Of a stretch of DNA of 64,000 nucleotides, positions 7,979 to 22,586 are shown piece by piece. Each line of letters starts with the position of its first letter. Within the stretch, counting starts at the first letter, position 1. The notes under the pieces are model-generated. The model searched no databases. It was not told the DNA's origin and saw only the letters and a program-made list of their open reading frames with translations. A program made the position numbers and the translations under genes. This DNA comes from Polyangiales bacterium (GTDB lineage Bacteria > Myxococcota_A > Polyangia > Polyangiales > Houyiibacteriaceae): contig JBFGKE010000001.1 of the NCBI GenBank assembly GCA_041576815.1, positions 147,708-211,707 on the forward strand, given 5' to 3'.

Positions 7979-8007
7979 TTGTGAAACGACCAAGTCGTCC
8001 GTAGGCT
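7979..8007 (+). promoter_or_regulatory. Putative sigma70 promoter of the regulator-PKS operon, with a dyad in the spacer
   Basis: TTGTGA (7979-7984), 17 nt, TAGGCT (8002-8007). The spacer contains the palindrome ACGAC-CAA-GTCGT. ATG lies 8 nt after the -10 with no SD, so the transcript may be near-leaderless. Confidence 0.45.
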
Positions 8008-8015
8008 AATTCGAC

Positions 8016-8834
8016 ATGGTGGAGTTGCTGAGCACGTCGGAGGCCGCCCGCATCATCGGGGTGGGCACGACCAGCGTAAAGCGCTGGGCGGATACCGGGC
8101 TGCTCGACTGCGTGCGAACGGCGGGTGGCCATCGGCGATTCACGCGCAACGCCCTCGACCGCTTCGTGCGCCTGCAGCAGCAGCAAGAGCCCGTGGTCGA
8201 CGAGGTCGACCGGTGGTTGGATGTGCTGCTTTCGGAGATGAGCCACGAGCTTGCGCTGGTGCGCGCGTGCGCGCGGCTGGGCTCGTGGTGCGCCGTCGCC
8301 GAAGAGCTGTCGCCGGTCCTGACCGAGCTCGGCCTGCGTTGGAGCAGAGGCGAGATCAGCGTCGGCGAAGAGCACGCCACGTCGGAACGCCTGTCGCGGG
8401 CGCTCGCTCGCATCGTCGAGTCGCTTCCGCTCTTGCCCACGGCACCTCTCTGTCTTTTGGCGTGTATCGAAACCGAAGATCACGCCTTGGGCCTTTCGCT
8501 TGCCGAGCTGTGTCTTCGAGAGCTCGGGTGGGCATCGCTTTGGCTTGGTCGGCGTACGCCCACCTCGGCGATCGTCGATCAGATTTGCAACAATGATCGC
8601 ATTCGCATGGTGGGTCTTTCCGCTTCGGAAGCATGCGCCAATCCGTCCTTACTTCGACTCATCAGCTCTTCCGTGGGTTCCGTTTGCCGGGACCGAGACG
8701 TTGCCTTGATCTTGGGGGGGAGAGGCCCGTGGCCGGAGGTGCCGAGCTACGGCACTCGAATTTGGGGTTTCCACGAGATCGAGGTCGCGCAAAGACGAGT
8801 TCAGAAAAACAGCCGGAGACCGTCCGTACGGTGA
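8016..8834 (+). CDS. CarH/LitR-like cobalamin-binding transcriptional regulator (MerR/excisionase-type HTH plus B12-binding domain)
   Basis: N-terminal HTH LSTSEAARIIGVGTTSVKRWAD...RTAGGHRRF; W-x9-EH motif (RWSRGEISVGEEH); E-x-H-x2-G motif (TEDHALG); Rossmann-like C-terminus (VGLS...LILGG). Confidence 0.85.
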   Translation: MVELLSTSEAARIIGVGTTSVKRWADTGLLDCVRTAGGHRRFTRNALDRFVRLQQQQEPVVDEVDRWLDVLLSEMSHELALVRACARLGSWCAVAEELSPVLTELGLRWSRGEISVGEEHATSERLSRALARIVESLPLLPTAPLCLLACIETEDHALGLSLAELCLRELGWASLWLGRRTPTSAIVDQICNNDRIRMVGLSASEACANPSLLRLISSSVGSVCRDRDVALILGGRGPWPEVPSYGTRIWGFHEIEVAQRRVQKNSRRPSVR

Positions 8835-8858
8835 CCAACGCCTTGCTTCGATAGGGAA

Positions 8859-11800
8859 ATGCCCGTGATCGATCGAACCCTGATTCCCGACTCCGCCGTT
8901 GCCGTCATCGGCATCGGCTGCTGGTACCCAGACGCGCCGAACCCATCGCGGCTCTGGGAGAACGTGCTGGCTCGTCGACTCGCGTTTCGTCGCCTCCCTG
9001 CTCAGCGTCTTCCGCTCGAGGCATACCACGACCCCGATTTTCGAACGCCGGACAAAACGTACGGACGCAAAGCCGCCGTCATCGATGGCTTCGAGTTCGA
9101 TTGGAAGAGGAGACGCATTCCGAAAAGCACGTTCGAAGGCACGGACATCGCCCATTGGCTTGCGCTCGAGGTCGCGCTTCAGGCGCTGTGGGACTCCGGG
9201 TATGGGCGGGGGACGCTGCCAAGAGAGCGCACGGGTGTGATTGTCGGCAATACGTTGACCGGCGAGCAGAGTCGCTCCACCAATTTGCGGATGCGGTGGC
9301 CGTTCGTCGAGCGTGCGATCCGTGCCGCTGCCAATCACGAGGGCATGAGCGTGCGCGCCACCAGTGATTTGATCGATTCCACGCGTTCGTACTTCAAGTC
9401 CGTCTTTCCGGCGGTCGACGAAGACACGCTTGCCGGGTCCCTTTCCAACACCATTGCGGGCCGGATCTGCAACTTCCTCGACCTTCAAGGAGGCGGGTAC
9501 ACCGTCGACGGGGCATGTGCGTCGTCGCTGCTGGCCGTGACCAACGCGGCCAACGTGCTGAGGAACGGCGACCTCGACGTGGCGCTCGTTGGTGGTGTCG
9601 ACATCAGCCTCGACCCGTTCGAGCTCGTGGGCTTTGCCAAAGTGGGCGCGCTGAGCCCGACGCAGATGCGGGTCTACGACCGCGCCGCGAACGGTTTCGT
9701 GCCGGGGGAGGGCTGCGGCTTCGTCGTCCTCAAGCGCCTCGAGGATGCGCGTGCGGATGGGGACTACATCTATGCGACGCTCCGCGGTTGGGGTGTGTCT
9801 TCGGACGGCGCGGGCGGGATCACCGCCCCGAGCGTCGCCGGCCAGGCGCTTGCGATTCGGCGTGCGTACAAGCGCGCGGGTTACTCCCCCGAGCTCCTCG
9901 ATTTCGTCGAGGGACACGGCACCGGCACCCCGGCGGGCGACCCGGTGGAGCTCAAGGCGATCGCGAGCGCGATGGAAGCGTACGGCGTGCGGAATCCGCG
10001 TCGGTGCGGCGTCACCTCCTTCAAGTCCATCGTCGGGCACACCAAGGCGGCTGCCGGCATCGGAGGTTTCATCAAGGCCGTCATGGCGGTGAATCGCCGG
10101 GTCATCCCGCCGACCTCTGGTTGCGTCGATCCCAGCGCGACCTTCGCAGACGACGCGCGCGTGCTCTACCCCGTGAAGACCGGGCACGTCGATTCGCCGG
10201 ACGAGGTCGTTCGGGCAGGCGTTTCCGCGATGGGGTTTGGGGGCATCAATACGCACGTGACGATCGAGTCGTGCGACCCTCCTGCATCACGGCTCAGGCC
10301 CTCCCTCGACGAGGATGTGCTGCTCGCCTCTGCACAGGACACCGAGCTGTTCGTGATGTCGGCCGCCAGCGTCGATGCGCTCAAGAAGCGCGTCGAGCAA
10401 GTTGCGGCACGCGCGGACGGCACCAGCACGGGCGAGCTCGGCGATCTTGCTGCCGAGCTCTCGCGAGAAGCGGCTCCGGACGGCTTGGTTCGGACCGCGG
10501 TCATCGCTGGCGACCCGGATGAGCTCGAGGAGCGCCTTCAAGAGGTTCTCGACGTGCTGAACGCCGAGCCGCCGGGCGAGGGAACGGTCGTACGCTGTCC
10601 GCGCGCCCGGCATCGCGCTTGGCTTTCGAATGCGCCCCGGCGGCCCCGGGTGGGGTTTCTTTTCCCGGGGCAGGGCTCGCAGCAGCTCGGCATGGCGCGT
10701 CGGCTCGTGCGACGCTTCGATTGGGCCAAGCGGTTCGCAGAGCAGACCGATGTGTGGCTGGCCGAGCTCGGGTGCGAGCCCGTGACCCCGTTGGTGTTCC
10801 GGCCCGTGGAGCGCGCACACGACCAAGAGCAGGTGCGTGACTGGGCACGGACGCTCCGCCAAACCGAACACGCCCAACCCGCCATCTGTTTCGCGAGCGC
10901 GCTGTGGTTGAAGTACCTCGCGAGACTGGGGGTGACCCCTGACTTCGTGGGCGGTCACAGCTTGGGGGAGCTGAGCGCGTTTCATGCAGCCGGCGCGCTC
11001 GACGAGCGCGCACTCCTTCAACTGGCGGCGACGCGCGGCAAGATCATGGCAGGCGCGAGCGCCTCGGGAACGATGGCAAATCTCTCGTGTACGCGCCAAG
11101 AAGCCGAGGCCCTGATCGCCGAGGTCTCCGGATACGCGACGATTGCAAACCTGAATGCATCCGATCAAACCGTCGTCTCGGGCGACCGCGAGGCGGTGGA
11201 GCAGATCGTCGAGCTGGCCAAGAAGCGCGCGATGGCCGCAGCGCCGCTCGCGGTCTCCGCGGCGTTTCATTCGGCCCACTTTCACGAGGCTGCGTACGCG
11301 CTCCGGCAAGCGGACGGTGTGCCGGAGATCTCGAACCCGATGCATGTGCCTGCGATCAGCGCGATCGACGGCACCGAGATTCGCACGGGGGTTTCGATGC
11401 GAGATTACTTGGGGCGCCAGATGTGCGCCGAGGTCGACTTCGTGAGGCTGGTGCGCGCGATGGACGAACGCTGCGACCTCCTCCTCGAGGTCGGGCCCGG
11501 GCGCGCTCTGAGCGGCCTCGTCAAACGGATCATCGACGACGAGCGTTTGAGCTGCTTCCCCCTCGAATCGCGGCCCGACAAGGATGAAGACCTCCACGTC
11601 GCCATTGCGGCGCTTTTCGTCGGCGGTCGGCGTCTTCGACTCGATGCGCTCTACGAGGGCCGTCTCAGCAGGCCGTTCATCCCGGCATCTCGAAGAAAAT
11701 TCATCGAGAACCCGTGCGAGCGTCCCTTCGTCGACGAAATTGCGGCTCGAGTCACGACGAGCGCCTCCCATCAGCCAGCGCTCTCAGTTCTGCCGCAGGC

Positions 11801-14800
11801 AGGGTCCGACGAGCACGCCAGGGAGGCGGAGCCACCACATCGCAGCGTCATCGAATCCCAGATCGTCACGAAGCCCTCCGTGCACGGCGCCGTTCTCGCA
11901 TCGGTGGAGGCGCAAACGGGGTTCCCGATCGAGACTCTGACCCTCGACCTCAGGCTCGTGGATGACCTTCACCTCGATTCGATCAAGACCGTGGAGCTGG
12001 TCTCCGAGGTCGCTGACCAGCTCAAAATCGAGGTGGATTTCGACGCGGCGCAGTTTGCAGACGTGACGCTCGGAGAGTTGGTCGAGCGGATGGAGGCTCT
12101 GCAGACCGATTCCTCACCGGCGCCGGCTCTCGACTCGGTGGGCGCCGCGGGCGCGACGCGGAGCACGTCGGCGCGCGAACGGCCCTGGGTGGCGAATTTT
12201 GCGCTCGAGTGGAAGGAATCCACGTTGCCCCCAGCGCCGGAGTACAACGATCTGAAGACGGGGCGCGCTCTCTTGGTGGCGCCCGACCCTTCTGATGGTC
12301 TCGTCACGGATCTCGCAAGGGAGCTCGGCAAGCGGGGCGTCGACGTGATCGTGTCGGGGTCCAGGCTGGACTCCGACGGGGACGCGCCCGTGGATCACCT
12401 GCTGGTCGTGAGCCCGGACGCGAGCGCTTCGGACGACGTTGCGGCATTGCACGAGGTCGTCGAGCTCTACACGGGCGCCGCGCGTCTGCTGCCATCGACG
12501 GGAGCGCGCCACGGAGGCGCCTCGTGCGTGGCGTGGATTCGAGCGCGCTCATCCGAGCCGCAGGCGAACGGCCACGCCGACTGGGCGGCAGATGCGTTCG
12601 CCGCCACGGTTCACCTCGAGCGAAGGCAGCTTCGCGTTCGTTCGCTCGACTTCGCCGGCGCCGACCTTCAACCCGGTCGCATCGCGGAGGCCCTTGTCGA
12701 AGAGCTCGCGGGCGACGGGACGTTCGAAGCGGCGCGCTATGACCGCGCGGGGCGACGCTCGGTGGGAGTGCCCACGCTTCAGTCCCGAACGGCGTACAAA
12801 CGCCGAACCACGGCCATATGCGCGGACGACGTCGTGCTGGTCACGGGCGGAGCCAAGGGAATCACCGCAGAATGTGCTCTTGCGCTCGGGCGCGAGACAA
12901 GGGCCACGATGGTTCTCGTGGGCAGCTCGGCGGCGCCCGAGGACGCTGCCGAGCCCGACCCGGGGAACGAGATCGGTGCGACCTTGGCGAGGTTCCGAGC
13001 GGAGGGGCTCCGGTGCCACTATCGCCAGTGCAATCTGGCGGTGCGCGACCAGGTGAACCGCCTCGTCGCGGGCGTGCAGCGCGACTTCGGCTCGCTCGAT
13101 GCGGTCGTCCACGGCGCCGGGCTCAATCGGCCGCGTCCGGTCGAGGAGCCTGACGCCGCGGAAGTCCTCTCCGAGATCGAACCGAAGCTCGCGGGAGCGC
13201 TTCATCTCTTCGAGGCGCTCGATTCGGCGCCTCCCAAGATGTTCGTCGCCCTCACCTCGATCATCGGCGTGGTGGGAATGCCGCGCAATGCCTGGTACGG
13301 CTTTTCAAACCAAGCTCTGGACCGCAGCCTCGAGCGCTTTGCGGCTCGCCATCCGTCCGTCGAGACCCTGTCCGTGGCGTACAGCGTCTGGGACGAAGTC
13401 GGCATGGGCGCGAAGCTCGGAAGCATCGAAAGGCTCGCGAAGCTCGGCATCGACGCGATCCCGGTGGAGGAAGGGGCCGCGCGTTTTCTGGAGCTCGTGG
13501 TGCGTGACCCGGGAACGCGCGAGGTCATCGTGGCCGCACGTTTGGGCGGCCTCGATACGTGGCGTCCCGCGCTGCCGCCGCTGCCGCGGGCCCACCGCTT
13601 CATCGACCAGATCGTGAGGCTCGAGCCGGGGCGTGAGCTCGTCTGTCGGACCAAGCTCGACGTCGAGCGAGACCCATATGTCGAGGATCACGTGTATGAG
13701 GGCGCCCGTCTCTTGCCGGCGGTGTTCGGCATCGAAGCGATGGCCGAGGCCGTCGCACACGTCACCGGTCGACCCGAGCTCCCTTTCCCGCTTTGGCTCG
13801 AGGACGTCGAGCTAAGGCGGCCGCTCGTCGTTCATCCGGAACGTGGGCTGCTGATCGAGATTCGCGCGCGAGTCGACGACGGTGACTTGTTCGAGTCGGC
13901 GCCACAGCGGATTCGCGCAGAGGTCCGCTGCCAACAGACGGGGTTCGCGAGCGCTCACTTTTCAGCATGTTTCGTTCTCGGCGCCGACACGAAAACGGGC
14001 GCGCGGTTTTTCGAGATGCCGGCCGAAGCTTTGCCCATTCGACCGCGCCAGCATCTGTATGGCTCCGTTCTCTTCCAGGGCCCGCGGTTTCAGCGAATCG
14101 AGAAGGTCTTCGCGCTCGACGCGCAGAGATGTGTCTTCGCCGCGGAGCGGGACCCGACACGCGAGAGCTGGCTCCTCGGCGATCCGTATTTCCGGGACGC
14201 TCTGCTCCAGAGCCTGCAGCTTTGCGTCGTGCCGGATCAGTGCCTGCCGGTACGCGTCGATCGCTGGGAGATTCACGGCCAACCGGCAAAGAGGGAGAGG
14301 GGCCTCGCACGGGCCACGATCGACGGCCACGAAGACGACACGTACATCGGGACCGTGAATGCCGTCAGCGCAGACGGATCGCCGCTCGAGAGCCTCCTCG
14401 GCTACCGCGCACGCACGCTGTCCCAACGACAAGACTGGCCCCGCGCGGCCGAGCTCGCCTCGCGCGGTGCTGTCCCGGCCGTTCCGCTTCGCGTGATTCA
14501 CGGCGATGCCCTGGAAGACGACGTGCGCATCCAGGTGAATCGGCCCGAGCCATGGGACGGCGGGGTCTTTTATCGAGATGTGCCCGGCTACGGCCACGAA
14601 GGCCAAACGGCGTTTTTCTGTCGTTTTCCCTTGAGCGCGCAGGATTCCTCCTCGGTGAGCGGGTCACTGAACTTCACCAGCTACTTCCGGTGGGCGGGCA
14701 AGCTTCGGGAGTGGGGCGGGATGAACACCCCGGGCGTCTACGAGGGCATCCTCGAAATGCTCGGCTCGAACTCGGTGATGTCGGCGACGAACGAATGCGA

Positions 14801-15590
14801 GACTCGCATCTTCAAGGTGCCGAAGCGCAACGACTTCATCGAAGGCCGGTATTGGATGGAGTACGTCAACAAGGGCGACGCGGGAAACATCTTCGAGTGG
14901 TGGCGCATCCCTTTCCCGAGCGGCGAGCCCGAAATGATCGCGTGGACGAAGATGCGGATCTCGGCGGTCAAGTCGGTGCGCCACGGCGTCATCTCCGCCA
15001 CGGATTGGCCAGACTTCTTGTACCGGTTCTTGAAAGACATGGGAGACGATGCGCCCGAGCCCACGGTCGGCCCCGCGCTCGAGCTCGACCTCGGCGCCAC
15101 CCTGTTTGCCAAGGTGCCGGGGCCTCAGCCGGGCCCGCTCCTCGCCGAGCAAACCTACTCCACCGCAACAGAGGACTCCAACGTCGTCGGCAACATCTAC
15201 TTCGCGAACTACAGCGCGTGGCAAGGTCGACTGACGGACGGGTTCTTTCACTCCCTGGCGCCGCACCTCTTCGAAGAGCGCGGCACGCACGGAGAGCTCC
15301 ATCGTGCTCAGACCCGCATCAGCCAGCTCCGAGATGCGATGCCGTTCGACGAGGTTGGCGTTCTCATGCGTCTCGAGGAGCTTTACGAGCGCGGGGCGCG
15401 GTTGAGCTTCGAGTTTTTCCGGAAAGAGCCAGCCGGCGTCACCAAAATCGCCGCGGGGCGCAACCTCATCGCGTGGGCGACGCTCGAGCGCGGCGCAGCG
15501 CCTCGACCGTTGCCATGGCCGGAGGAGCTCCGCGACGCGCTTCTAGCAGCCACGGGACAAAGCGTGCGCATCTCGCAGGGCCATGTCTGA
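8859..15590 (+). CDS. Enediyne-type (PksE-like) iterative type I PKS: KS-AT-ACP-KR-DH-TE(hot-dog)-TE(hot-dog)
   Basis: KS: LWENVLARR, GNTLTGE, EDTLAGSLSNTIAGRICN, DGACASS, EGHGTGT, GHTKAAAG. AT: FPGQGSQ, GHSLGE, AFHS. ACP: DDLHLDSI. KR: VTGGAKGITAECA, YGFSN. DH: DHVYEGARLLP, DPYFRDA. C-terminal hot-dog motifs: TSYFRWAGKLRE and EDSNVVGNIYFANYSAWQGR. Confidence 0.9.
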   Translation: MPVIDRTLIPDSAVAVIGIGCWYPDAPNPSRLWENVLARRLAFRRLPAQRLPLEAYHDPDFRTPDKTYGRKAAVIDGFEFDWKRRRIPKSTFEGTDIAHWLALEVALQALWDSGYGRGTLPRERTGVIVGNTLTGEQSRSTNLRMRWPFVERAIRAAANHEGMSVRATSDLIDSTRSYFKSVFPAVDEDTLAGSLSNTIAGRICNFLDLQGGGYTVDGACASSLLAVTNAANVLRNGDLDVALVGGVDISLDPFELVGFAKVGALSPTQMRVYDRAANGFVPGEGCGFVVLKRLEDARADGDYIYATLRGWGVSSDGAGGITAPSVAGQALAIRRAYKRAGYSPELLDFVEGHGTGTPAGDPVELKAIASAMEAYGVRNPRRCGVTSFKSIVGHTKAAAGIGGFIKAVMAVNRRVIPPTSGCVDPSATFADDARVLYPVKTGHVDSPDEVVRAGVSAMGFGGINTHVTIESCDPPASRLRPSLDEDVLLASAQDTELFVMSAASVDALKKRVEQVAARADGTSTGELGDLAAELSREAAPDGLVRTAVIAGDPDELEERLQEVLDVLNAEPPGEGTVVRCPRARHRAWLSNAPRRPRVGFLFPGQGSQQLGMARRLVRRFDWAKRFAEQTDVWLAELGCEPVTPLVFRPVERAHDQEQVRDWARTLRQTEHAQPAICFASALWLKYLARLGVTPDFVGGHSLGELSAFHAAGALDERALLQLAATRGKIMAGASASGTMANLSCTRQEAEALIAEVSGYATIANLNASDQTVVSGDREAVEQIVELAKKRAMAAAPLAVSAAFHSAHFHEAAYALRQADGVPEISNPMHVPAISAIDGTEIRTGVSMRDYLGRQMCAEVDFVRLVRAMDERCDLLLEVGPGRALSGLVKRIIDDERLSCFPLESRPDKDEDLHVAIAALFVGGRRLRLDALYEGRLSRPFIPASRRKFIENPCERPFVDEIAARVTTSASHQPALSVLPQAGSDEHAREAEPPHRSVIESQIVTKPSVHGAVLASVEAQTGFPIETLTLDLRLVDDLHLDSIKTVELVSEVADQLKIEVDFDAAQFADVTLGELVERMEALQTDSSPAPALDSVGAAGATRSTSARERPWVANFALEWKESTLPPAPEYNDLKTGRALLVAPDPSDGLVTDLARELGKRGVDVIVSGSRLDSDGDAPVDHLLVVSPDASASDDVAALHEVVELYTGAARLLPSTGARHGGASCVAWIRARSSEPQANGHADWAADAFAATVHLERRQLRVRSLDFAGADLQPGRIAEALVEELAGDGTFEAARYDRAGRRSVGVPTLQSRTAYKRRTTAICADDVVLVTGGAKGITAECALALGRETRATMVLVGSSAAPEDAAEPDPGNEIGATLARFRAEGLRCHYRQCNLAVRDQVNRLVAGVQRDFGSLDAVVHGAGLNRPRPVEEPDAAEVLSEIEPKLAGALHLFEALDSAPPKMFVALTSIIGVVGMPRNAWYGFSNQALDRSLERFAARHPSVETLSVAYSVWDEVGMGAKLGSIERLAKLGIDAIPVEEGAARFLELVVRDPGTREVIVAARLGGLDTWRPALPPLPRAHRFIDQIVRLEPGRELVCRTKLDVERDPYVEDHVYEGARLLPAVFGIEAMAEAVAHVTGRPELPFPLWLEDVELRRPLVVHPERGLLIEIRARVDDGDLFESAPQRIRAEVRCQQTGFASAHFSACFVLGADTKTGARFFEMPAEALPIRPRQHLYGSVLFQGPRFQRIEKVFALDAQRCVFAAERDPTRESWLLGDPYFRDALLQSLQLCVVPDQCLPVRVDRWEIHGQPAKRERGLARATIDGHEDDTYIGTVNAVSADGSPLESLLGYRARTLSQRQDWPRAAELASRGAVPAVPLRVIHGDALEDDVRIQVNRPEPWDGGVFYRDVPGYGHEGQTAFFCRFPLSAQDSSSVSGSLNFTSYFRWAGKLREWGGMNTPGVYEGILEMLGSNSVMSATNECETRIFKVPKRNDFIEGRYWMEYVNKGDAGNIFEWWRIPFPSGEPEMIAWTKMRISAVKSVRHGVISATDWPDFLYRFLKDMGDDAPEPTVGPALELDLGATLFAKVPGPQPGPLLAEQTYSTATEDSNVVGNIYFANYSAWQGRLTDGFFHSLAPHLFEERGTHGELHRAQTRISQLRDAMPFDEVGVLMRLEELYERGARLSFEFFRKEPAGVTKIAAGRNLIAWATLERGAAPRPLPWPEELRDALLAATGQSVRISQGHV

Positions 15591-18279
15591 CGCAGCGAGT
15601 CGCATTTCAGGTCCAGCGACTTTCGACGAAGCGCGGCGGAAGACGAACATTCAGGGCCTGAAAGCGGCGACCCTCTCGGCGCTCGTCGTCGTGTCGTCTT
15701 TTGCGTGGGTGGAGTACTACCAGGTCCGAGAGCATTTCTGGCTTCTTCAAACGCTCCGCGGAGTTTGTCTGGCCGTGCTTGCGGTGATCGCGTTCGCGGC
15801 ATTCCGCGCGCGGCCATGGACGGTCCGTCACGTGGACGCTCTGACGATCGGTGCGTTCCTGGTCTGCGGTTGGTACAGCATCACGCTCATGCTGCTTCAC
15901 GATGGGTACAACTCCGAGTTCTTTCTCACGCTCGTCTTCATCATCGTAGGAGTAGGCGCGGTCACCCTTTGGCCGATCGAGACCGCGTTGGTCTACATGC
16001 TCCTCATCATCGTCTCCTATCTCGCGCCGCTCCTCTTCGGCCTCGCCGAGGTGAAGAAGGGGGACGTGTTCCCGATCCATCTCAGCTTCCTGCTCGGAAT
16101 GGCGATGATCAGTGTCGTCGCGCAACAGCTTCGCTACCGAATCGAGAGGCGGGAGTTTCTGACCAGCCGAAGCCTCGAGGAAACCAAGGCCTCTCTCGAG
16201 GTGGCGTACGACCGGCTCAAGGAGCTCGACCAGCTCAAAACCGACTTCTTTGCGAACGTTTCCCACGAGCTTCGAACGCCCCTTACGCTTTCGCTCGGGC
16301 CGCTGGAGTCGCTGCTGCGGGAACGACACCGGCCCGAGGTCGAAGAGCAGCTCGAAGGCCTCCGGCGAAACCAGCTCCGGCTGCTCCGCTTGATCAACCA
16401 GCTGCTCGATTTCGCGAAAGTGGAGTCCGGCAACGTCCAAGCGGAATTCGGCAAGGAGGACGTAGCCGCCTTGGCGCGCCGGCTGGTTGGCGATGTCGAA
16501 GGCGCTGCCGGAGCGAAAAGCCTCGAGATCGAGCTCGCCGTGCCGTCGGAGCCGGTGTGGCTTTACATCGATCGCGAAAAGCTCGAACAGACGCTCCTCA
16601 ACCTGCTCTCGAATGCCTTCAAGTTCACGCCAAAGGGCGGCCGCATCACCGTGAGGGTGAGGGAGCTCGATCAGGCGGTGGAGATCCGCGTGAGCGACAC
16701 AGGCATCGGGATCGACCCCGACAAGATCCACACGATTTTCGACCGGTTCGCCCAGGCGGACTCGTCCGAGACCCGCCGCTACGCGGGGACGGGGATCGGC
16801 CTTTCCCTGGTGAAGACCAACCTCGAGCTTCACGGCGGCACGGTCGACGTGCAGAGCGAGCCTGAGCGCGGCACGACGTTCATCCTCTCGATTCCTCGCG
16901 GCAAGGCGCACCTCCCCGACGCACACGTGTTCGAGCATTCGCGAACGCCGGCGGAGTCGGCCCTGAAAGCCGAGCAGCTCGTCGAGTTCGCGGCCGAGCC
17001 CCAGGAAGAGCCGGCCGACGCCCATGCGGCAGACCAAGCCCTGCGGCTCGATCAACTCGATGAAGACGAGGACGACCCCGTCTCCGTGGATTGGGTCAAC
17101 CGGCTCTTCGAAATCGACGATGACAAGCCCCGCGTGCTCGTCGTCGACGATGCCGCGGACATGCGGCGGTATCTATGCTCGATCCTCGAGCCCGATTACG
17201 AAATCAGAACTGCCAAGGATGGCGCCGAAGGCTTGCAGGAGGCCACACGCTGGGATCCCGACCTCGTCGTGTCCGACGTCATGATGCCGGTGATGTCGGG
17301 CTCCGAGCTGTGTCGGGCGATCAAGCGCGCAGGAGGGCGGCTCGCGCGCACACCGGTCATCCTCGTGACGGCGCGCGCCGAGGAGCAGTCCAAGCTGCGC
17401 GGGCTCGGATATGGGGCTGACGACTATCTCCTGAAGCCGTTTCTTCAGGACGAGCTCCTCCTTCGCGTGCGAAATCTCGTGACGAAGCGCCGTCAAGAGC
17501 GTGCGCTCTTCGACGCGCACCTCACGCTGCGCGCGCAGCACGACAACCTGCTTTCGGACCTCGAGCTCGCCCGCAACTTTCAGGAGAGCTTGCTTTCCAA
17601 GCTCGAGATGCCCGAGCCGCTCGACGCGCACGTGGAGTTCCACCCCGCGGACGTCGTGGGCGGCGATTTTTATCACCTCACGTCGCTCGGCCCGAGTCGT
17701 GTCCGGCTGTTCGTCGCGGACATGGTCGATCACGGGGTCAAGGCTGCCGTGCGGGCGGCGGCGGCGTGGCCGGAGTACACGAGCCTCGAGCATCCTGAGC
17801 TCGGCCCGGCCGACGTTCTGACGCGCCTCAACGATGTCGCCACCTCGAAGTATGCCGACCTGTCCGGGAGCTTTCTCTGTCTCGATCTGGACACCGCGGC
17901 CGGCGCACCGACCTCGGCTTGCTACGCCCAGGCCGGCGAAATGCCGTTCATCGTGATGGCCAACGGATCATTCGAGACACCCCCTCACACCGAAGGGTTC
18001 GTCGTCGGCTTGTTTCCCGGCATGAGCTACCAGTCGCGGGAGCTGAGCCTCACCCCCGGCACCCGTCTGTTTCTTTACTCCGATGGCCTGTACACTCAAC
18101 CTGACCACACGGGGCAGACCTTCCGTGAGGGGGGGTTGAAAGAGGCCTGGAGCATCGCGATGGGGCACACCGACATCCGAGCGGCAACCGAGGAGATCAT
18201 CGAATCGATGAAGCGGTTTCGCGGCATGACGGCGCAGCTCGACGACGTGACGCTGATCGGCATCGAGGTAGGGAAATAG
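15583..18279 (+). CDS. Membrane hybrid sensor: 6 TM helices - HisKA - HATPase - receiver - SpoIIE/PP2C phosphatase
   Basis: Six hydrophobic segments with short loops; H-box FFANVSHELRTPL; N-box NLLSNAFKFT; G-boxes SDTGIGI and GTGIGLSL; receiver VLVVDD...SDVMMP...LLKPF; PP2C ARNFQESLL, GGDFY, LYSDGL, DDVTLI. Overlaps the PKS stop by 8 nt. Confidence 0.9.
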   Translation: MSDAASRISGPATFDEARRKTNIQGLKAATLSALVVVSSFAWVEYYQVREHFWLLQTLRGVCLAVLAVIAFAAFRARPWTVRHVDALTIGAFLVCGWYSITLMLLHDGYNSEFFLTLVFIIVGVGAVTLWPIETALVYMLLIIVSYLAPLLFGLAEVKKGDVFPIHLSFLLGMAMISVVAQQLRYRIERREFLTSRSLEETKASLEVAYDRLKELDQLKTDFFANVSHELRTPLTLSLGPLESLLRERHRPEVEEQLEGLRRNQLRLLRLINQLLDFAKVESGNVQAEFGKEDVAALARRLVGDVEGAAGAKSLEIELAVPSEPVWLYIDREKLEQTLLNLLSNAFKFTPKGGRITVRVRELDQAVEIRVSDTGIGIDPDKIHTIFDRFAQADSSETRRYAGTGIGLSLVKTNLELHGGTVDVQSEPERGTTFILSIPRGKAHLPDAHVFEHSRTPAESALKAEQLVEFAAEPQEEPADAHAADQALRLDQLDEDEDDPVSVDWVNRLFEIDDDKPRVLVVDDAADMRRYLCSILEPDYEIRTAKDGAEGLQEATRWDPDLVVSDVMMPVMSGSELCRAIKRAGGRLARTPVILVTARAEEQSKLRGLGYGADDYLLKPFLQDELLLRVRNLVTKRRQERALFDAHLTLRAQHDNLLSDLELARNFQESLLSKLEMPEPLDAHVEFHPADVVGGDFYHLTSLGPSRVRLFVADMVDHGVKAAVRAAAAWPEYTSLEHPELGPADVLTRLNDVATSKYADLSGSFLCLDLDTAAGAPTSACYAQAGEMPFIVMANGSFETPPHTEGFVVGLFPGMSYQSRELSLTPGTRLFLYSDGLYTQPDHTGQTFREGGLKEAWSIAMGHTDIRAATEEIIESMKRFRGMTAQLDDVTLIGIEVGK

Positions 18280-18288
18280 AGCACACCG

Positions 18289-18711
18289 ATGGGACCTGCT
18301 GGAACATTCGAGTTGAAGGGCCATTCTCGACTCCAGATCGATCACCGGGTCGACGAGCATCACGAGCTCACGATCTGGTTCCAAGGAGATATGGTGGTGC
18401 GTCGGGGGACGCGTTTCGACCGATATCTCAGCCATTTGGAAGAACTGGCGGCGCTTGCCTGCGGGACCCCGGCAACCCACGTGCACTGCCACCTCGAGGA
18501 CCTCGGGGAGGCGCTTTCCCGTGCCCAGCACGCGATCTATCGAATGCTAAATGGCATGCGCGGACATGGAATCCCGATTACTATTTACGCGACGGGCGAA
18601 CGTCCAGAGCAATCGGAGCATCTGAAGATGTCCAAGCTCTTCGTGGAGGGGCTATCCAAGCAACCCGGGCCTCCGCTCGAGTTGGTGGAGATCAGGCGGC
18701 GAGCATCTTGA
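18289..18711 (+). CDS. STAS-like / SiaC- or Slr1659-like phospho-acceptor protein (putative)
   Basis: 140 aa; LTIWFQGD...VHCHLEDLGEALSRAQHAI...IPITIY aligns by eye with the STAS/SiaC topology; Ser77 sits at the anti-anti-sigma phosphorylation position. Context next to a PP2C and a kinase supports the call. Confidence 0.55.
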   Translation: MGPAGTFELKGHSRLQIDHRVDEHHELTIWFQGDMVVRRGTRFDRYLSHLEELAALACGTPATHVHCHLEDLGEALSRAQHAIYRMLNGMRGHGIPITIYATGERPEQSEHLKMSKLFVEGLSKQPGPPLELVEIRRRAS

Positions 18712-19259
18712 GCAAAGATTCCCAAGTCATGTATGACCTGCTCCTCAAGCCGCTCCGGTTCGATCCGGAGCTGACCGAGTCGGTCATCTTCGGGTTGAAG
18801 TGGACCCTGAGTTCGATGTTTGCCGACCCGTTTCCGGTCCGCGACGTGGTTGTCGCCGTTCGCGAGGTCGTCGACAACGTCTTGACGCACGCCGATTGGG
18901 ACGCGTCGCCGGCGCCTTCGCTTTACGTCCGCTACCGGCTTCACAAAGGCAAGCCCCAGCTCTGCGTGTCGACCACGAACGCGGTCAAAGACGTCGAAGA
19001 GGCGCAGCGCGCGCTGCGCTTCGTGAAGGAATACGTGGGAAGCAAGTCTCCCGCCGCGCTTCATCGCGAGCTCACGGCGCACCTCATCGAATCGGCCAGC
19101 ATTCGCAACAACGGGGGCATCGGCCTTCTACAGGTCGCCTCGTCTCCGCGCTGCAAGCTCGACATCCGCCTCGAAGGACAGGTGTTCCACGTACGGGTCG
19201 ATGTGAATGTGCCGCAGCTTCAAGCGGCCCCGGCGCTCCAAAACCGCACCGGGTCCTAA
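18708..19259 (+). CDS. HATPase_c-like Ser/Thr kinase (SiaB/Slr1658/anti-sigma-like)
   Basis: N-box AVREVVDNVLTHA, VSTTNAV, G2-like NNGGIGLLQVA; TTG start overlaps the upstream TGA (an ATG at 18729 is an alternative). Confidence 0.65.
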   Translation: MSKDSQVMYDLLLKPLRFDPELTESVIFGLKWTLSSMFADPFPVRDVVVAVREVVDNVLTHADWDASPAPSLYVRYRLHKGKPQLCVSTTNAVKDVEEAQRALRFVKEYVGSKSPAALHRELTAHLIESASIRNNGGIGLLQVASSPRCKLDIRLEGQVFHVRVDVNVPQLQAAPALQNRTGS

Positions 19260-19388
19260 CTCCCGGCCTCCGCTCGTCGCCCGCCTTTTCCCTCTGAACG
19301 CGGGGGCTGCACAGGCGAATAGCGGCGTAGTTTATTCAGCATGAACATAAGATTCGACAAATAGTAGAATTCTTGCTTTATTGTCGAC

Positions 19389-22300
19389 ATGGCCGTCGAC
19401 TTAGTCGTTTTACCCACTCAATCCGGCCAACCCGGCTATCAGCGCGCCCCCGTTGTAATTCTGCTCACGTTGGTTTCGGCGCTCGGCGTCTCGGTGGGCG
19501 TAGAAGCCCAGTGCTCGACGGCCGACGCCGACATGAACGGCGTGCCTGACGTCTGTCCGGCGGGCTCCAACTACATCGCCGGAACCGGTGGAGACGACAA
19601 GCTGCGCGGGACAAACGGGCCAGACTGCATCTTCGGGTTTGGAGGCGACGACGACATCGATGGCCGCAAGGGCGACGACTACATTTGCGGTGGGGCCGGC
19701 GACGACAAGCTCAAGGGCAAGGACGGCACCGACATCATCCACGGCGGGGACGGCGCCGACGAAATCAAGGGCGGCAACGGCAACGACGCCCTGAGCGGGG
19801 GGCCGGGGATCGACACGGTCGACGGGGGCAACGGCACCGACTCCTGTGTCGAAGAGGTGCCTGGAACCTCCCAGGGTCTGACCAGCTGCCAGCTTCTCAC
19901 CTACGCCAACGTGAGCGGCCTCGAGGTTTCGCAAGACGACACGGGCTTGCTCGTCACCTGGGAAACCACCACCGAGGTGGGCTCGGTGGCCTTCCGCCTG
20001 TGGCGGAGTGACGCCGATGGCCGCCTTCGGTGGGTTGGCGAGGTGCCCGCCGCGCCCGAAGGTGAAGTGCACGGAGCGCGCTACTTCCTCCGCGACGACG
20101 AGGCGCCGCTCGACAGCACCGTCGAATACATCATCGAGGAGCGCACGGTCTCGGGAGGGAGCGTACAGTACGGCCCGTACGTTCGAAACCCCGAGCCCGT
20201 GGACGCTCGCTTCGCGTTCGCGCGTGTCCGCTCCCGAGCTGCCGGCCGCGTCCCGCGCGAGATCGAGCTACGCCGTAGGGCGCGGCCAGTGCGCGCGCAC
20301 TCGCTCCGGTCGGCCGCGCGGAAGAGCGCCGCGGCGGTCTCTGCGGCGGTTCTGACGGTCGCCGAGCCGGGTGTCGTCGAAGTCGATGCCGGGACGCTGG
20401 CCGACGTGTTCGGGGCGAGCCGGGACGGCGCTGCAGGACTGATTCAGTCCGGCGGGCTCGATCTCCGCCTACGCGGAGAGCCCGTGGCGTGGCACCCAGT
20501 CGGCGACGGAGCTGCGCTCCGGTTCGTCGCCCCTGAAATCAATTCGCCGTTCTCTCGCGAGCACCGCTACCTCCTTTCGATCAATGACGGCCTGACGATG
20601 GAGGCGGCGGTGCTCGTCGAGGGGGCTGCGATGGCGCCTCACACGTTCGTCGCGACGAAGCGGTTCGAAGAAAACGTGTTCCCCGGACCGACGGGAGGCC
20701 CCGACCCCCGCCAAGACCTCTTCTTCTGGCATGCGCTTTCCTCCGAGGCGGAGGCGGTCATCCCGGTTTCGCTTCCCGGGCTGGTCGACGCCGGCGCGGA
20801 AGAGCTTCGGGTCTACGTCCACGGAGCGACCGAGCATCCGGAGCAGCCACACCTCGTCGAGCTTCGTTGGAACGGGCAGAGCCTCGGCACGTTCGAGCTC
20901 TTCGGGCGAAGCCGACACGCGATTCACGTGCCTCTCGACGGCGTGAGCGTCGCCGCGCTGAACGAGCTCGTCGTCGTGCAGCACGTTGCAGGGGAAGCGC
21001 CGCCCGTCCTCTACGTCGATGCCCTCGAGGTGGATTACGCGCGTTTCGCCGAGGCGGATGCGCCCTCGTTCGGTTTCGGCGCGGCCAGTGACGGCACGCA
21101 GCGCGTGACCGGTCTCACGTCTCAAACGGTTCATCTCTACGACGTCACGGACCCGAGCGCGCCGCGGCACTACGGTGAGGTGCCTGTCGACGAATCGGGG
21201 GGCCTGGGCTTTACGTCGGAGGCGCACGCCGGTCGTTTCCTCGCCGCAGCCCCAGAGAGCGTGTCGGTGCCGGTCGCGGTCGCACCGCACGACGCCGCCG
21301 ACCTCCGCTCCCCCGACCTCCGGGTCGACTACCTGGTCGTCGCGGCATCGCACCTGGTCGAGGAGGCGCAAACGCTTGCAGGCCATCGAGAGGCCGACGG
21401 CTATCGCACCCTGGTGGTCGACATCGACGATGTCTTTTGGGCGTTCGCCGACGGCGAGCCCGACCCCCTCGCGGTTCGCGACCTTCTCGCGTTTGCATCG
21501 CGCCAGTGGGCGGTCGCACCGCGATTCGCAGTGCTCGTCGGCAAGGGCAGCATGGACTACCGAGACCTGATCGGGCTCGGCGGCAACTGGCTGGCGCCGG
21601 CGCTCGCCGAGACCGACGGCGGCCTGTTCCCCTCGGATTCGATGCTCGGGGACATCGTCGGTGATGACGGCGTACCCGAGATCGCGATCGGTCGCTTGCC
21701 GGTGACGACGGCCGACGAGCTGAGCCGCGCGCTCGACGCGATTCGGTCGTTCGAAGCCAATCACGAGACGATGAAGGCGCTCTTCGCGGCCGACGACTCC
21801 GAGCGCGGCGAGTTCGTAGCCACCGCCCGCGCGCTTGCCGCGGACGTGGCACCGGGGCGCCTCGATGAGATCGACCTGAATACCGAAGCCCTAGAAGAGG
21901 CTCGACATCGACTGCGGTCCGCGTGGCAGAGCGGCGTCAGCTGGCTGACGTATGTCGGACATGGGGGCCTCGATCGGTTGTCGACCGAGGGCCTGCTCAC
22001 CACCGCAGACCTCCCCGAGCTCGCGCAGACCCCAAGCAGCCCGGTCGTGCTCGGTTGGAGCTGCAACATCGCCCGATTCGACATCCCCGGCTTCGCATCG
22101 CTCGGAGAGCAGCTGGTGGTCGACGGGGGGAGCGCGGCGGTCTTCAGCGCGACCGGCTGGTCGAATCACGTCGAGACCGATGAGCTTCGACAGGCCTTCA
22201 ACGCGGCGGTGTTTGCCTCCGATGCGGAAACCCTCGGCGACGCCATGCTCCGCGCACATGAGGCGGCCGCGAACGCTCCGGTGGCCCAGCATCGAGTGTA

Positions 22301-22547
22301 CCTGCTCCTCGGAGATCCCGCGCTTCGGCTTCGGGCCCCCAAGGCGGCCGCGGCACCAGAGCCCGCCCCTCCAGTGCCGTCCGACGACCCATCGCGCAAC
22401 CCGGTTCAAACCTCTAGTGAAGTCGAGGTTTCGACCGACGCCGGCTCCAGCTGCGCCGTTCGGGCGCCGGGCGCCGGGGAAGGGCCGAGCGGCTTGGCGC
22501 TCCTGGTGTCGGGAGCGCTCCTCGCGGCTCGCCGCAGGCGTCGCTGA
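19389..22547 (+). CDS. Secreted C25 (gingipain-like) cysteine peptidase with RTX Ca-binding repeats and a MYXO-CTERM-like tail
   Basis: GGxGxD nonapeptide repeats near the N-terminus; C25 motifs DYLVVA, DGEPDPLAVRD, PEIAIGRLP, YVGHG (His), GWSCN (Cys), YLLLGDPAL; C-terminus SSCAVRAPG...LALLVSGALLAARRRRR. Confidence 0.85.
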   Translation: MAVDLVVLPTQSGQPGYQRAPVVILLTLVSALGVSVGVEAQCSTADADMNGVPDVCPAGSNYIAGTGGDDKLRGTNGPDCIFGFGGDDDIDGRKGDDYICGGAGDDKLKGKDGTDIIHGGDGADEIKGGNGNDALSGGPGIDTVDGGNGTDSCVEEVPGTSQGLTSCQLLTYANVSGLEVSQDDTGLLVTWETTTEVGSVAFRLWRSDADGRLRWVGEVPAAPEGEVHGARYFLRDDEAPLDSTVEYIIEERTVSGGSVQYGPYVRNPEPVDARFAFARVRSRAAGRVPREIELRRRARPVRAHSLRSAARKSAAAVSAAVLTVAEPGVVEVDAGTLADVFGASRDGAAGLIQSGGLDLRLRGEPVAWHPVGDGAALRFVAPEINSPFSREHRYLLSINDGLTMEAAVLVEGAAMAPHTFVATKRFEENVFPGPTGGPDPRQDLFFWHALSSEAEAVIPVSLPGLVDAGAEELRVYVHGATEHPEQPHLVELRWNGQSLGTFELFGRSRHAIHVPLDGVSVAALNELVVVQHVAGEAPPVLYVDALEVDYARFAEADAPSFGFGAASDGTQRVTGLTSQTVHLYDVTDPSAPRHYGEVPVDESGGLGFTSEAHAGRFLAAAPESVSVPVAVAPHDAADLRSPDLRVDYLVVAASHLVEEAQTLAGHREADGYRTLVVDIDDVFWAFADGEPDPLAVRDLLAFASRQWAVAPRFAVLVGKGSMDYRDLIGLGGNWLAPALAETDGGLFPSDSMLGDIVGDDGVPEIAIGRLPVTTADELSRALDAIRSFEANHETMKALFAADDSERGEFVATARALAADVAPGRLDEIDLNTEALEEARHRLRSAWQSGVSWLTYVGHGGLDRLSTEGLLTTADLPELAQTPSSPVVLGWSCNIARFDIPGFASLGEQLVVDGGSAAVFSATGWSNHVETDELRQAFNAAVFASDAETLGDAMLRAHEAAANAPVAQHRVYLLLGDPALRLRAPKAAAAPEPAPPVPSDDPSRNPVQTSSEVEVSTDAGSSCAVRAPGAGEGPSGLALLVSGALLAARRRRR

Positions 22548-22586
22548 TCTGTTCGGTCTCCGGCTGATTTCTGCGATACTTCAGGC

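Follow-up and report, generated by a model that had tools for sequence, protein, structure and literature searches.

The closest characterized relative of the synthase described here is RerA/RerB of Rhodococcus erythropolis PR4, an iterative polyene synthase that forms hepta- to nonaenes when expressed in E. coli and, given malonyl-CoA and NADPH, also in vitro (Prasongpholchai et al. 2024, PMC11563203). RerB is laid out as PPTase-"Y"-TE, the middle "Y" having been left as an unknown domain; its authors marked R415 as substrate-binding, and when the TE domain was inactivated a coloured enzyme-bound species remained (PMC11563203). Canonical enediyne synthases (PKSE) have a terminal PPTase, a separate homo-oligomeric thioesterase and an E3-E4-E5-E-E10 cassette. 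We analysed a 64-kb stretch of DNA (the window) in which the open reading frame 8859-15590 on the + strand encodes 2243 aa in a single uninterrupted frame, with a GC3 of 0.80 that is usual for genes of the source genome. The features of this locus are the following.

7979..8007, + strand: promoter/operator-like element, TTGTGA, 17-nt spacer, TAGGCT (conservation in the upstream alignment)
8016..8834, + strand: CarH/LitR-type regulator, MerR/excisionase-type HTH and B12-binding domain (Pfam, NCBIfam and PDB matches)
8859..15590, + strand: iterative type I PKS, KS-AT-ACP-KR-DH-HD1-HD2, RerAB-type polyene synthase lacking the PPTase domain (Pfam, KS tree, profile matches, RerB alignment)
8892..10118, + strand: KS domain, aa 12-420 (Pfam, 1.4e-55 and 5.8e-33)
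10656..11492, + strand: AT domain, aa 600-878 (Pfam Acyl_transf_1, 2.6e-30; NCBIfam FabD, 1.8e-51)
11892..12089, + strand: single ACP, aa 1012-1077, attachment serine in LHLDSIKT (Pfam PP-binding, 6.5e-6)
12834..13394, + strand: KR domain, aa 1326-1512 (Pfam KR, 7e-25; motifs TGGAKGIT and YGFSN read off the translation)
13593..14429, + strand: PKS-type DH, aa 1579-1857 (Pfam PKS_DH_N, 4.2e-11, and PS-DH, 3.4e-15; motifs HVYEGARLLP, i.e. HxxxGxxxxP, and DALLQ read off the translation)
14580..15020, + strand: hot-dog 1 (HD1), aa ~1908-2054, E7/E10-type thioesterase fold (profile, conservation, RerB alignment, structure model)
15147..15545, + strand: hot-dog 2 (HD2), aa ~2097-2229, corresponding to the RerB "TE" (sequence matches, conservation, RerB alignment)
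15583..18279, + strand: membrane hybrid sensor, multi-TM N-terminus followed by HisKA-HATPase-REC-PP2C(SpoIIE) (Pfam)
18289..18711, + strand: 140-aa cassette protein, family not recognised (kept in L004, L010, L097 and L098)
18708..19259, + strand: 183-aa cassette protein with weak RsbW-like kinase similarity (kept in the same four loci)

A first-pass annotation had described the protein as a PksE-like iterative synthase with a thioesterase fused in cis, ordered KS-AT-ACP-KR-DH and then two hot-dog domains. This description was borne out, the domain order by Pfam, profile matches and a structure model. The catalytic Cys of the KS (DGACASS) and both His residues (EGHGTGT, GHTKAAAG) are intact, and the translation of the AT domain contains GHSLGE and AAFHS, which we take to denote malonyl-type specificity. 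One ACP was matched in this protein, compared with 2-5 in some relatives. Because the DH and hot-dog 1 are only about 20-40 residues apart, a PPTase cannot fit between them. The HMM scan of the C-terminus that the annotation had proposed gave no ACPS or DH match in Pfam over the last ~350 aa, the sole match being a weak one to 4HBT_2.

The last 346 aa are collinear with RerB residues 182-520 (Y+TE), at 33% identity (E=2e-45), and the alignment contains nothing in the window protein equivalent to the RerB PPTase. "Y" thus corresponds to hot-dog 1, a second E7/E10-type hot-dog with the family's invariant Arg-Glu. Hot-dog 2 matched SgcE10 (1.2e-13), CalE7 (2.2e-13) and DynE7 (2.6e-12), and a hot-dog 1 profile made from 15 sequences matched DynE7 (1.2e-14), SgcE10 (4.7e-12) and CalE7 (2.8e-8), its other significant matches being just two unnamed 'Thioesterase' entries, 5vpj and 9ccr. 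An AlphaFold2 model of the C-terminus showed two hot-dog folds (pLDDT 82, pTM 0.84), and its Foldseek partners were double hot-dog acyl-ACP and acyl-CoA thioesterases (FatA/FatB, ACOT; E about 1e-12). Hot-dog 1 retains the Tyr...Arg-Glu motif, YFRWAGKLRE, of which W1945, G1947, R1950 (codon at nt 14706-14708) and E1951 are invariant in 86/86 family members, and this argues for a conserved catalytic site. The invariant residues of hot-dog 2 are N2108, G2111, N2112, Y2114, Y2118 and W2121. At the position of CalE7 R37 and RerB R415 this domain has Thr2126 (nt 15234-15236), and the residue is non-Arg in 25 of the 86 family members, so that hot-dog 2 may be inactive; release would then rest on the putative hot-dog 1 site.

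All three KS motifs, GNTLTGE, EDTLAGSLSNTIAGRICN and DPFELVGFAK, were found in the window KS. They are common to SgcE-type PKSE and RerA-like proteins and different in PfaA, and thus mark the PKSE-like superfamily at large and are not specific to enediyne producers. Identity of the window KS is 55-66% to the PPTase-HD1-HD2 family, 55% to RerA, 54.7% to SgcE and 35.5% to PfaA. In the KS tree, PfaA was the outgroup, parted from the rest by a branch of length 1.7-2.5 (support 100/100). The four canonical PKSE grouped together (100/99). Their sister is a clade of 61 rows (94/93; 96/95 in a first run) that contains RerA, every PPTase-HD1-HD2 protein and the window PKS. The annotation had proposed a KS phylogeny against PksE and PUFA synthases and had expected a KS within the PksE clade; the window KS is far from PfaA, and it lies outside the clade of the four PKSE sampled, as its sister. 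We infer, provisionally, that the RerA-like family is sister to the canonical enediyne PKSE and not nested among them, the sample being four Streptomyces plasmid cassettes, all SgcE-like and close relatives of one another, with no calicheamicin- or dynemicin-type synthase.

The arrangement KS-AT-ACPn-KR-DH-PPTase-HD1-HD2 occurs in one frame at about 45 loci in many phyla (Thermodesulfobacteriota, Planctomycetota, Bacillota, Cyanobacteriota, Omnitrophota, Bdellovibrionota, Pseudomonadota and others). Among these loci the PPTase-less form is restricted to a Polyangiales-like clade; one Polyangiales-like genus has it, and at least one or two further lineages have arrived at it separately. The annotation had held that the PPTase was replaced by thioesterases, but the usual family layout is DH-PPTase-HD1-HD2 in one polypeptide. 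As judged from these layouts, the family inherited its tandem thioesterase from its ancestor, and the window protein has simply lost the PPTase by deletion. Nor is the protein unique, as had been implied: a search of 50%-identity representatives recovers its C-terminal di-domain in 323 clusters (E<=1e-30), and a split member, RerA/RerB, is biochemically characterized (PMC11563203). The window protein can be viewed as a cut-down member of an enzyme family that is widespread and has been little studied.

A carH-like gene lies 24 bp upstream of the PKS. Its product matched HTH_17/MerR_1 and B12-binding_2 in Pfam (the latter under the gathering cut-off), TransRegCarH in NCBIfam (4e-16, under the cut-off) and PDB entries 5c8d (CarH, 6e-11) and 8jbs (8e-24); the alignment shows a W-x9-E-H motif (WSRGEISVGEEH) and an E-x-H motif (EDH). 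The protein is likely to be an AdoCbl-dependent, light-sensing regulator. Of 9 PKS-positive congeners, 4 have an orthologue (69-70% identity); of 15 PKS-negative congeners, none has. These orthologues adjoin the PKS wherever contigs allow, and the cassette is kept at L004, L097 and L098. Expression of the PKS is probably light-induced. A second PPTase-less subclade (P0011, P0013 and P0014) is without the CarH gene, so light control is no property of the enzyme family. Two SQS_PSY-family genes and a second, distant CarH-like paralogue are present in the source genome, and a carotenoid-based light response may therefore already exist.

The element at 7979..8007 ends 8 nt ahead of the carH-like start codon and is the sole strongly conserved block in an upstream alignment of the window, L004, L097 and L098; its spacer holds an imperfect direct repeat (AACGACC AAGTCGTCC). 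A sigma-70 consensus scan did not detect it, and its 9-mer is not enriched within the window; conservation across species suggests that it is promoter- or operator-like. Downstream, the sensor and PKS reading frames share 8 nt, from the sensor start codon to the PKS stop codon (ATGTCTGA), and a sensor kinase gene lies 3' of the PKS in all PPTase-less relatives with downstream sequence. The 140-aa protein has no Pfam match, and the 183-aa protein matched HATPase_c_2 (E=0.014) and DUF6272 (E=0.009), both under the cut-off.

E3/E4/E5 genes were found neither in the window nor in the source genome, which is 99.6% complete. Pfam DUF1702 and UnbV_ASPIC gave no match in the genome (the DUF1702 search had a positive control, which worked on three enediyne plasmids), nor did tblastn with SgcE2-E5, and profiles from four canonical cassettes gave no match at E<=1 to the six-frame translation. 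The genome also contains no PKSE-type PPTase domain and, by tblastn with SgcE, no second PKS, and the PKS flanks of relatives are free of the enediyne cassette. The claim of a synthase with neither a PPTase of its own nor an enediyne cassette thus holds across the genome. The search for an Sfp-type enzyme, likewise suggested earlier, returned the genome's one PPTase gene, Sfp-type (PptT/Npt-like), 216 aa, on contig C25 and unlinked to the PKS; its product could activate the PKS ACP. Given a protein that lacks its own PPTase and a genome that lacks the cassette, a polyene product, not an enediyne, and a need for a trans PPTase are still the best inferences, as first proposed.

We consider it probable that the protein is a RerA/RerB-type self-releasing polyene synthase, trans-primed and probably light-induced, which makes no enediyne because E3, E4 and E5 are absent. 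As a stand-alone, highly reducing iterative PKS, it would use KS, AT, ACP, KR and DH, with no ER, to repeat malonyl extension, ketoreduction and dehydration, and a conjugated polyenoyl thioester would accumulate on the ACP. The C-terminal tandem hot-dog, in effect an E7/E10 homodimer joined into one chain, would hydrolyse this thioester in cis; if the chemistry of CalE7/SgcE10 and RerB holds, decarboxylation/dehydration would give a linear C15-C19 polyene or polyenone pigment. The most likely product is a yellow conjugated polyene, built and released by the single enzyme, and its synthesis is most likely light-induced. Because the ancestral PPTase between the DH and the thioesterase has been deleted, another protein must prime the apo-ACP in trans, and the unlinked Sfp/PptT-type enzyme is the most plausible candidate. 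Since a dedicated gene for a putative CarH-type AdoCbl photoreceptor heads the PKS transcription unit, the polyene may have a photoprotective role, as a pigment or quencher, or may act as a light-dependent signal in the membrane.

That the protein is a true enediyne PKSE, in an organism that makes an enediyne with E3/E4/E5 unlinked or too diverged to see, is hardly credible. Its KS is as close to SgcE as to RerA, several relatives carry the JGI label 'enediyne polyketide synthase', and both thioesterase halves are E7/E10-like; but Pfam HMMs, tblastn and custom profiles found no DUF1702, UnbV/CRTAC1 or E5 homologue in a nearly complete genome, in the DUF1702 search against a working control, the KS falls outside the canonical clade, and no relative has the cassette in its flanks. 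Very unlikely, too, is a PUFA-type or 'secondary lipid' synthase that makes a fatty acyl chain (e.g. a membrane lipid or hydrocarbon) via a trans enoyl reductase. PfaA TIGR02813 is the top NCBIfam match, across KS-AT, but at 560 bits it is far under the 1010-bit cut-off. Some family members have 2-5 tandem ACPs like Pfa synthases, and one relative's genome has a separate PfaA-like gene; against this, the KS shares just 35-38% identity with PfaA, the long KS branch splits the groups, ER and FabA-type DH domains are missing, tblastn with SgcE showed no second PKS in the source genome, and RerAB, of the same clade, yields conjugated polyenes.

A polyene could also be made while the fused hot-dog pair of the window clade has some role other than releasing the chain by hydrolysis. 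It might gauge chain length, hold the chain or decarboxylate it, with release by another enzyme or transfer to a lipid or protein acceptor. The Arg lost from hot-dog 2 and the coloured species left on the enzyme after RerB TE inactivation are in keeping with this, and we know of no acidic catalytic residue defined for CalE7-class thioesterases. We nevertheless regard it as unlikely, since the W, G, R and E of hot-dog 1 are invariant throughout the family and the surroundings of the PKS gene contain no conserved acyltransferase or other enzyme for release.

As a putative self-releasing polyene synthase, the window protein shares with the canonical SgcE/SgcE10, CalE8/CalE7 and DynE8/DynE7 the KS-AT-ACP-KR-DH order, the KS signature motifs and the thioesterase family, and the steps as far as the ACP-bound polyene are presumed alike. 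It differs in having no PPTase, two tandem fused thioesterases, no cassette in the genome and a KS sister to theirs. RerAB has the same two hot-dog domains after KS-AT-ACP-KR-DH, belongs to the same KS clade (RerA pairs with P0015 inside the 61-row family) and requires no enediyne cassette for polyene formation; it consists, however, of two proteins with two ACPs and a PPTase heading RerB, whereas the window protein has one chain, one ACP and no PPTase, and Thr in place of R415. The uncharacterised PPTase-HD1-HD2 synthases of Desulfosarcina variabilis, Derxia lacustris, Thermoflavimicrobium daqui, Shimazuella kribbensis and Nostoc/Fischerella belong to the same family by the KS tree and the C-terminal di-domain. 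They keep the PPTase that the window clade has lost, and should therefore be able to self-prime, and most of them lack the CarH neighbour present here. Plant FatA/FatB and bacterial homologues likewise have tandem hot-dogs in one chain and thioesterase function, but sequence identity is just 10-13%; the two halves in the window protein stem from the E7/E10 lineage, so that this likeness is architectural. Finally, CarH/LitR proteins of Myxococcus xanthus, Thermus thermophilus and Streptomyces resemble the window regulator in their MerR-type HTH, B12-binding domain and W-x9-E-H/E-x-H motifs, and in each case the regulator gene heads its presumed target genes. The HTH of the window regulator is nearer the excisionase/BldC type, and where known CarH/LitR regulons comprise carotenoid (terpenoid) genes, the window has a predicted polyketide polyene synthase with an adjacent sensor kinase/phosphatase module.

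The synthase is encoded by a single ORF (8859-15590, plus strand; 6732 nt, 2243 aa), whose GC3 of 0.80 is usual for real genes of this genome (65% GC). Pfam assigns the following domains.

aa 12-420, plus strand: KS
aa 600-878, plus strand: AT
aa 1012-1077, plus strand: ACP, one copy
aa 1326-1512, plus strand: KR
aa 1579-1857, plus strand: DH, PKS-type
close to the C-terminus, plus strand: 4HBT_2, a weak match

The KS catalytic Cys and two His can be read in the translation, as can the motifs GHSLGE and AAFHS in the AT, LDSI in the ACP, TGGAKGIT and YxxxN in the KR, and HxxxGxxxxP and DALLQ in the DH. The three KS motifs that the first-pass annotation had taken as diagnostic of enediyne PKSs (PKSE) are present, by alignment, in the window PKS, in SgcE-type PKSE and in RerA-like proteins, and differ in PfaA. 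The window PKS shows two canonical PKSE features, the KS-AT-ACP-KR-DH order and the PKSE-type KS motifs. By score and KS grouping it does not qualify as a PfaA protein: it scores 560 bits with TIGR02813, against a cut-off of 1010 bits, and its KS is separate from the PfaA clade in the tree described below.

The last 376 aa match neither a PPTase nor a dehydratase family in Pfam. No ACPS match was found anywhere in the PKS, and searches with a PPTase-domain (PPT) query and with a PKSE-PPT profile were also blank. After a linker of ~20-40 aa, the DH is followed by two hot-dog domains, HD1 and HD2. HD2 (aa ~2097-2229) matched the PDB sequences of SgcE10 (1.2e-13), CalE7 (2.2e-13) and DynE7 (2.6e-12). 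HD1 gave no match to PDB sequences as a single-sequence query; a 15-member HD1 profile recovered DynE7 (1.2e-14), SgcE10 (4.7e-12) and CalE7 (2.8e-8), as well as two unnamed "Thioesterase" entries (5vpj and 9ccr), and no others significantly. An AlphaFold2 model of aa 1895-2243 contains two hot-dog folds (pLDDT 82, pTM 0.84), and Foldseek aligned the whole di-domain model with double hot-dog acyl-ACP/acyl-CoA thioesterases (FatA/FatB, ACOT7/12; E ~1e-12, TM 0.5-0.7). Both halves thus resemble CalE7, DynE7 and SgcE10 in sequence and predicted fold, and the initial description of two E7/E10-like hot-dogs straight after the DH, with no PPTase, is borne out.

To place the KS we built a maximum-likelihood tree of 68 KS rows (LG+C20, rooted on PfaA), in which canonical PKSE are represented by a narrow sample, four Streptomyces plasmid cassettes close to SgcE. 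KS identities to the window PKS were as follows.

PPT-HD1-HD2 family: 55-66%
RerA: 55% (OCR-derived RerA sequence)
SgcE-type PKSE: 53.5-54.7%
PfaA: 35-38%

PfaA is set off by a long branch (support 100/100) and the four cassette-associated PKSE form one clade (100/99). The window PKS, RerA and all of the di-domain proteins make up a 61-row sister clade (94/93; 96/95 in a first run). Within it, the eight Polyangiales rows that lack a PPTase group together with weak support (81/35), and the remaining 53 rows are their sister group. The window KS, which had been expected inside the PksE clade, is thus sister to the four canonical members and outside their clade.

A search with the C-terminal region yielded a first 16 full-length relatives, and in the more distant among them (P0015, P0017 and P0018; 2445-2628 aa) ~200 extra residues with PPTase motifs lie between the DH and HD1. 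With each species represented by one genome, a scan gave 102 relatives, from which 80 loci were retained. About 45 of the retained loci encode KS-AT-ACPn-KR-DH-PPT-HD1-HD2 in one uninterrupted frame, in Thermodesulfobacteriota, Planctomycetota, Thermoactinomycetaceae, Cyanobacteriota, Omnitrophota, Bdellovibrionota, Nitrospirota and several Pseudomonadota. There are split versions too: PPT-HD1-HD2 alone, HD1-HD2 alone or, in cyanobacteria, KS-AT separate from the remainder. The last arrangement, KS-AT plus ACP-KR-DH-PPT-HD1-HD2, was seen in Nostoc, Westiellopsis, Fischerella and a Gloeothece plasmid (L051, L053, L059 and L085), and the Gloeothece copy adjoins three tryptophan-7-halogenase-type genes. 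In three proteobacterial/Desulfobulbaceae loci (L020, L042 and L043; ORFs of ~3215-3229 aa) the frame extends ~500 aa past HD2. Among 1.84 billion representatives at 50% identity, a di-domain profile matched 323 clusters at E<=1e-30. In our literature searches, no paper was found that describes a PPT-HD1-HD2 fusion. The genome of a close relative has an extra 2762-aa PfaA-like synthase (L091, G006:C1:400738-403434; TIGR02813 605 bits); in the genome of the window itself, tblastn with SgcE turned up no other PKS.

Among the scanned loci, the PPTase-less form is confined to one clade of Polyangiales-like Myxococcota MAGs, comprising the window, L004-L010 and the metagenomic proteins P0003-P0014. 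The first-pass annotation had the PPTase replaced by thioesterases in what seemed a unique protein. Neither point survives the comparison. Relatives carry PPT as well as HD1-HD2, and the 323 clusters, the single-frame PPT loci and the characterised RerA/RerB pair leave nothing unique about the module. Because the canonical PKSE and the other family members have a PPTase at the same position, its absence from the Polyangiales clade is most parsimoniously read as a deletion. Three further PPTase-less DH-HD1-HD2 fusions in the representative set fall elsewhere in the KS tree, P0078 and P0134 together and P0056 apart, so the domain was lost more than once; the integrated PPTase is dispensable in this family. 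Such recurrent loss offers a natural experiment on what a built-in PPTase does for PKSE-type enzymes. What had looked like an odd protein now has its place among PKSE-like, non-enediyne synthases, a large family that spans phyla and has one biochemical study to its name.

We searched the organism's own assembly (3.69 Mb, 99.6% complete) for the enediyne cassette. Pfam UnbV_ASPIC (E4) and DUF1702 (E3) had no match in the whole assembly; as a positive control, the DUF1702 search picked out three enediyne plasmids. There was likewise no match in the genome by tblastn with SgcE2, E3, E4 or E5, and SgcE itself found the window PKS plus two short, far weaker matches to the KS and AT regions (contigs C15 and C29). 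NCBIfam has no model for E3, E4, E5 or E10; custom profiles for these and for the PKSE PPTase were built from the four canonical Streptomyces cassettes and searched against a six-frame translation of the genome. The E3, E4, E5 and PKSE PPTase-domain profiles had no match at E<=1. The E10 profile matched the PKS ORF (9.5e-13), and its sole other match was marginal (contig C85, E=0.018). The proposed lack of an enediyne cassette therefore holds genome-wide for E3, E4 (UnbV/CRTAC1) and E5 (UnbU), by Pfam for the first two and by tblastn and custom profiles for all three.

As regards the proposed priming of the ACP in trans, the genome has a single ACPS-superfamily gene, of the Sfp type.

Contig C25, 48240-48479 (L001:1405-2055), minus strand: Sfp/PptT-type PPTase, ACPS-superfamily match

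The gene encodes a PptT/Npt/EntD-like protein of 216 aa and adjoins polysaccharide export genes. It is the obvious candidate for priming the PKS ACP. No AcpS-type gene was detected in the 99.6%-complete genome, and this one PPTase probably serves primary and secondary carrier proteins, the fatty-acid ACP included.

The surroundings of the PKS bear on when it might be expressed.

7979-8007, just upstream of the carH-like gene: TTGTGA-N17-TAGGCT block with an imperfect direct repeat, AACGACC/AAGTCGTCC, inside
8016-8834, plus strand: CarH-like protein, 272 aa, ending 24 nt upstream of the PKS
18289-19259, plus strand: two conserved ORFs of 140 and 183 aa, following the PP2C-containing sensor
Contig C36, 18327-18842, outside the window: B12-binding MerR paralogue of the CarH-like protein, ~306 aa, 28% identity

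The CarH-like protein combines a MerR/excisionase-type HTH with a B12-binding domain (Pfam), matches CarH structures (5c8d, 6e-11; 8jbs, 8e-24) and retains W-x9-E-H and E-x-H, the two photoreceptor signatures; its score with the NCBIfam CarH model is below the cut-off (59 against 400 bits). Downstream, the start of a multi-TM HisKA-HATPase-REC-PP2C gene overlaps the PKS stop codon by 8 nt. The 183-aa protein has weak HATPase_c_2 and DUF6272 similarity and is weakly RsbW-like, which suggests that the two small ORFs could form an RsbV/RsbW-like partner switch, for which no output gene is evident. These five genes (8016-19259) recur with identical content and order in L004, L097 and L098. In the other PPTase-less subclade (P0011, P0013 and P0014) a hybrid kinase lies downstream of the PKS in P0011 and P0014; the contig of P0013 stops soon after the PKS. 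Neither a PP2C nor an upstream MerR gene was found in the flanks of these three. Further along the window, at 19389-24941, lie two large neighbouring genes for peptidase C25 (gingipain-type) proteins, the first with RTX calcium-binding repeats; ahead of them is a promoter-like site at 19342-19370.

The PKS is patchy in the window's genus: nine of 24 other species have it. The CarH-like protein has close orthologues (69-70% identity) in four of the nine PKS-positive and none of the 15 PKS-negative congeners, and they adjoin the PKS wherever contigs are long enough. The distant paralogue on contig C36 may be the housekeeping CarH/LitR; besides this genome, most congeners have it, PKS-positive and PKS-negative ones alike. 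Two SQS_PSY-family genes were also found in this genome (C5 and C14). The 7979-8007 block is the only well-conserved upstream element common to L004, L097 and L098, and AAATCGACC has a further copy at 7805. Within the window there is no enrichment of AAATCGWCC, the motif repeated upstream of carH, and a sigma-70 scan of the window did not call the conserved block. We regard it as a candidate promoter plus operator, as a lead only.

Across ~85 loci, clustering of flanking ORFs found no accessory gene conserved throughout the family, just generic ABC ATPases and sensor kinase/response regulators. Sensor kinase/response-regulator genes adjoin the PKS in several unrelated phyla, for example upstream in L026, L028, L031, L037, L050 and L054 and downstream in L017, L020, L042 and L043. 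This adjacency may be real or may reflect the abundance of such genes. For the CarH-linked subclade, the linkage and co-occurrence make light induction of the PKS likely, and we lean modestly towards it. The product could then be a photoprotective pigment or, alternatively, could serve the translationally coupled sensor as its ligand. It is a long shot that the whole cassette is an undescribed light-response module, in which light would induce a polyketide polyene, and not a carotenoid, as membrane pigment, and the polyene or a photo-oxidation product of it would be sensed in the membrane by the downstream kinase/phosphatase and relayed to the partner switch. Our literature searches found no description of a CarH-PKS link. 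A tie between the synthase and a dedicated, putative B12 photoreceptor in one myxobacterial genus brings polyketide polyenes into view as light-induced pigments or signals, beside carotenoids and aryl polyenes.

The sole characterised relatives are RerA (KS-AT-ACP-ACP-KR-DH) and RerB (PPTase, "unknown domain Y", TE) of Rhodococcus erythropolis PR4, which together turn E. coli yellow and in vitro convert malonyl-CoA and NADPH to hepta- to nonaenes and related polyenones (Prasongpholchai et al. 2024, PMC11563203). We took their sequences from the supplement as machine-read PDF text, with some errors. The last 346 aa of the window PKS align collinearly with RerB 182-520, that is Y plus TE (33% identity, E=2e-45), which equates Y with HD1. 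Sites were compared by conservation in 86 aligned di-domains. HD1 has W1945, G1947, R1950 and E1951 invariant in 86/86, and its motif YFRWAGKLRE aligns with YLHWQGHCRE of DynE7; in HD2, N2108, V2110, G2111, N2112, Y2114, Y2118 and W2121 are invariant in all 86. The position of RerB R415 equals that of CalE7 Arg37, which was reportedly essential in the work of Kotaka et al. (2009). At this CalE7 R37/DynE7 R35/RerB R415 position HD1 has the invariant R1950, and HD2 has Arg in 61 of the 86 di-domains and Thr2126 in the window PKS. R415 is marked as substrate-binding by the RerB authors (supplement, PMC11563203). Since that position varies in HD2 and R1950 does not vary, the family-wide invariant Arg sits in the Y half. 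Y is a second E7/E10-type hot-dog and bears the family's only invariant Arg-Glu pair, which shifts the choice of residue for mutation tests of release. One idea is that the HD1 Arg and the HD2 Asn/Tyr form one composite pocket; another is that there are two sites, one of them decayed.

Overall, the most plausible reading is that the window PKS is a single-chain RerAB-type polyene synthase without a PPTase, one that would release its own product through the fused thioesterase pair and depend on an Sfp-type PPTase in trans, and that its organism is not an enediyne producer. On function the first-pass annotation was largely right; its evolutionary framing and implied uniqueness were not. The window PKS is compact, should require nothing beyond malonyl-CoA, NADPH and a generic PPTase, and may be handy for making polyenes from one gene. 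The PPTase of RerB has no counterpart in the aligned window PKS; the two systems have in common their KS grouping and the tandem hot-dog (Y-TE) module after the DH.
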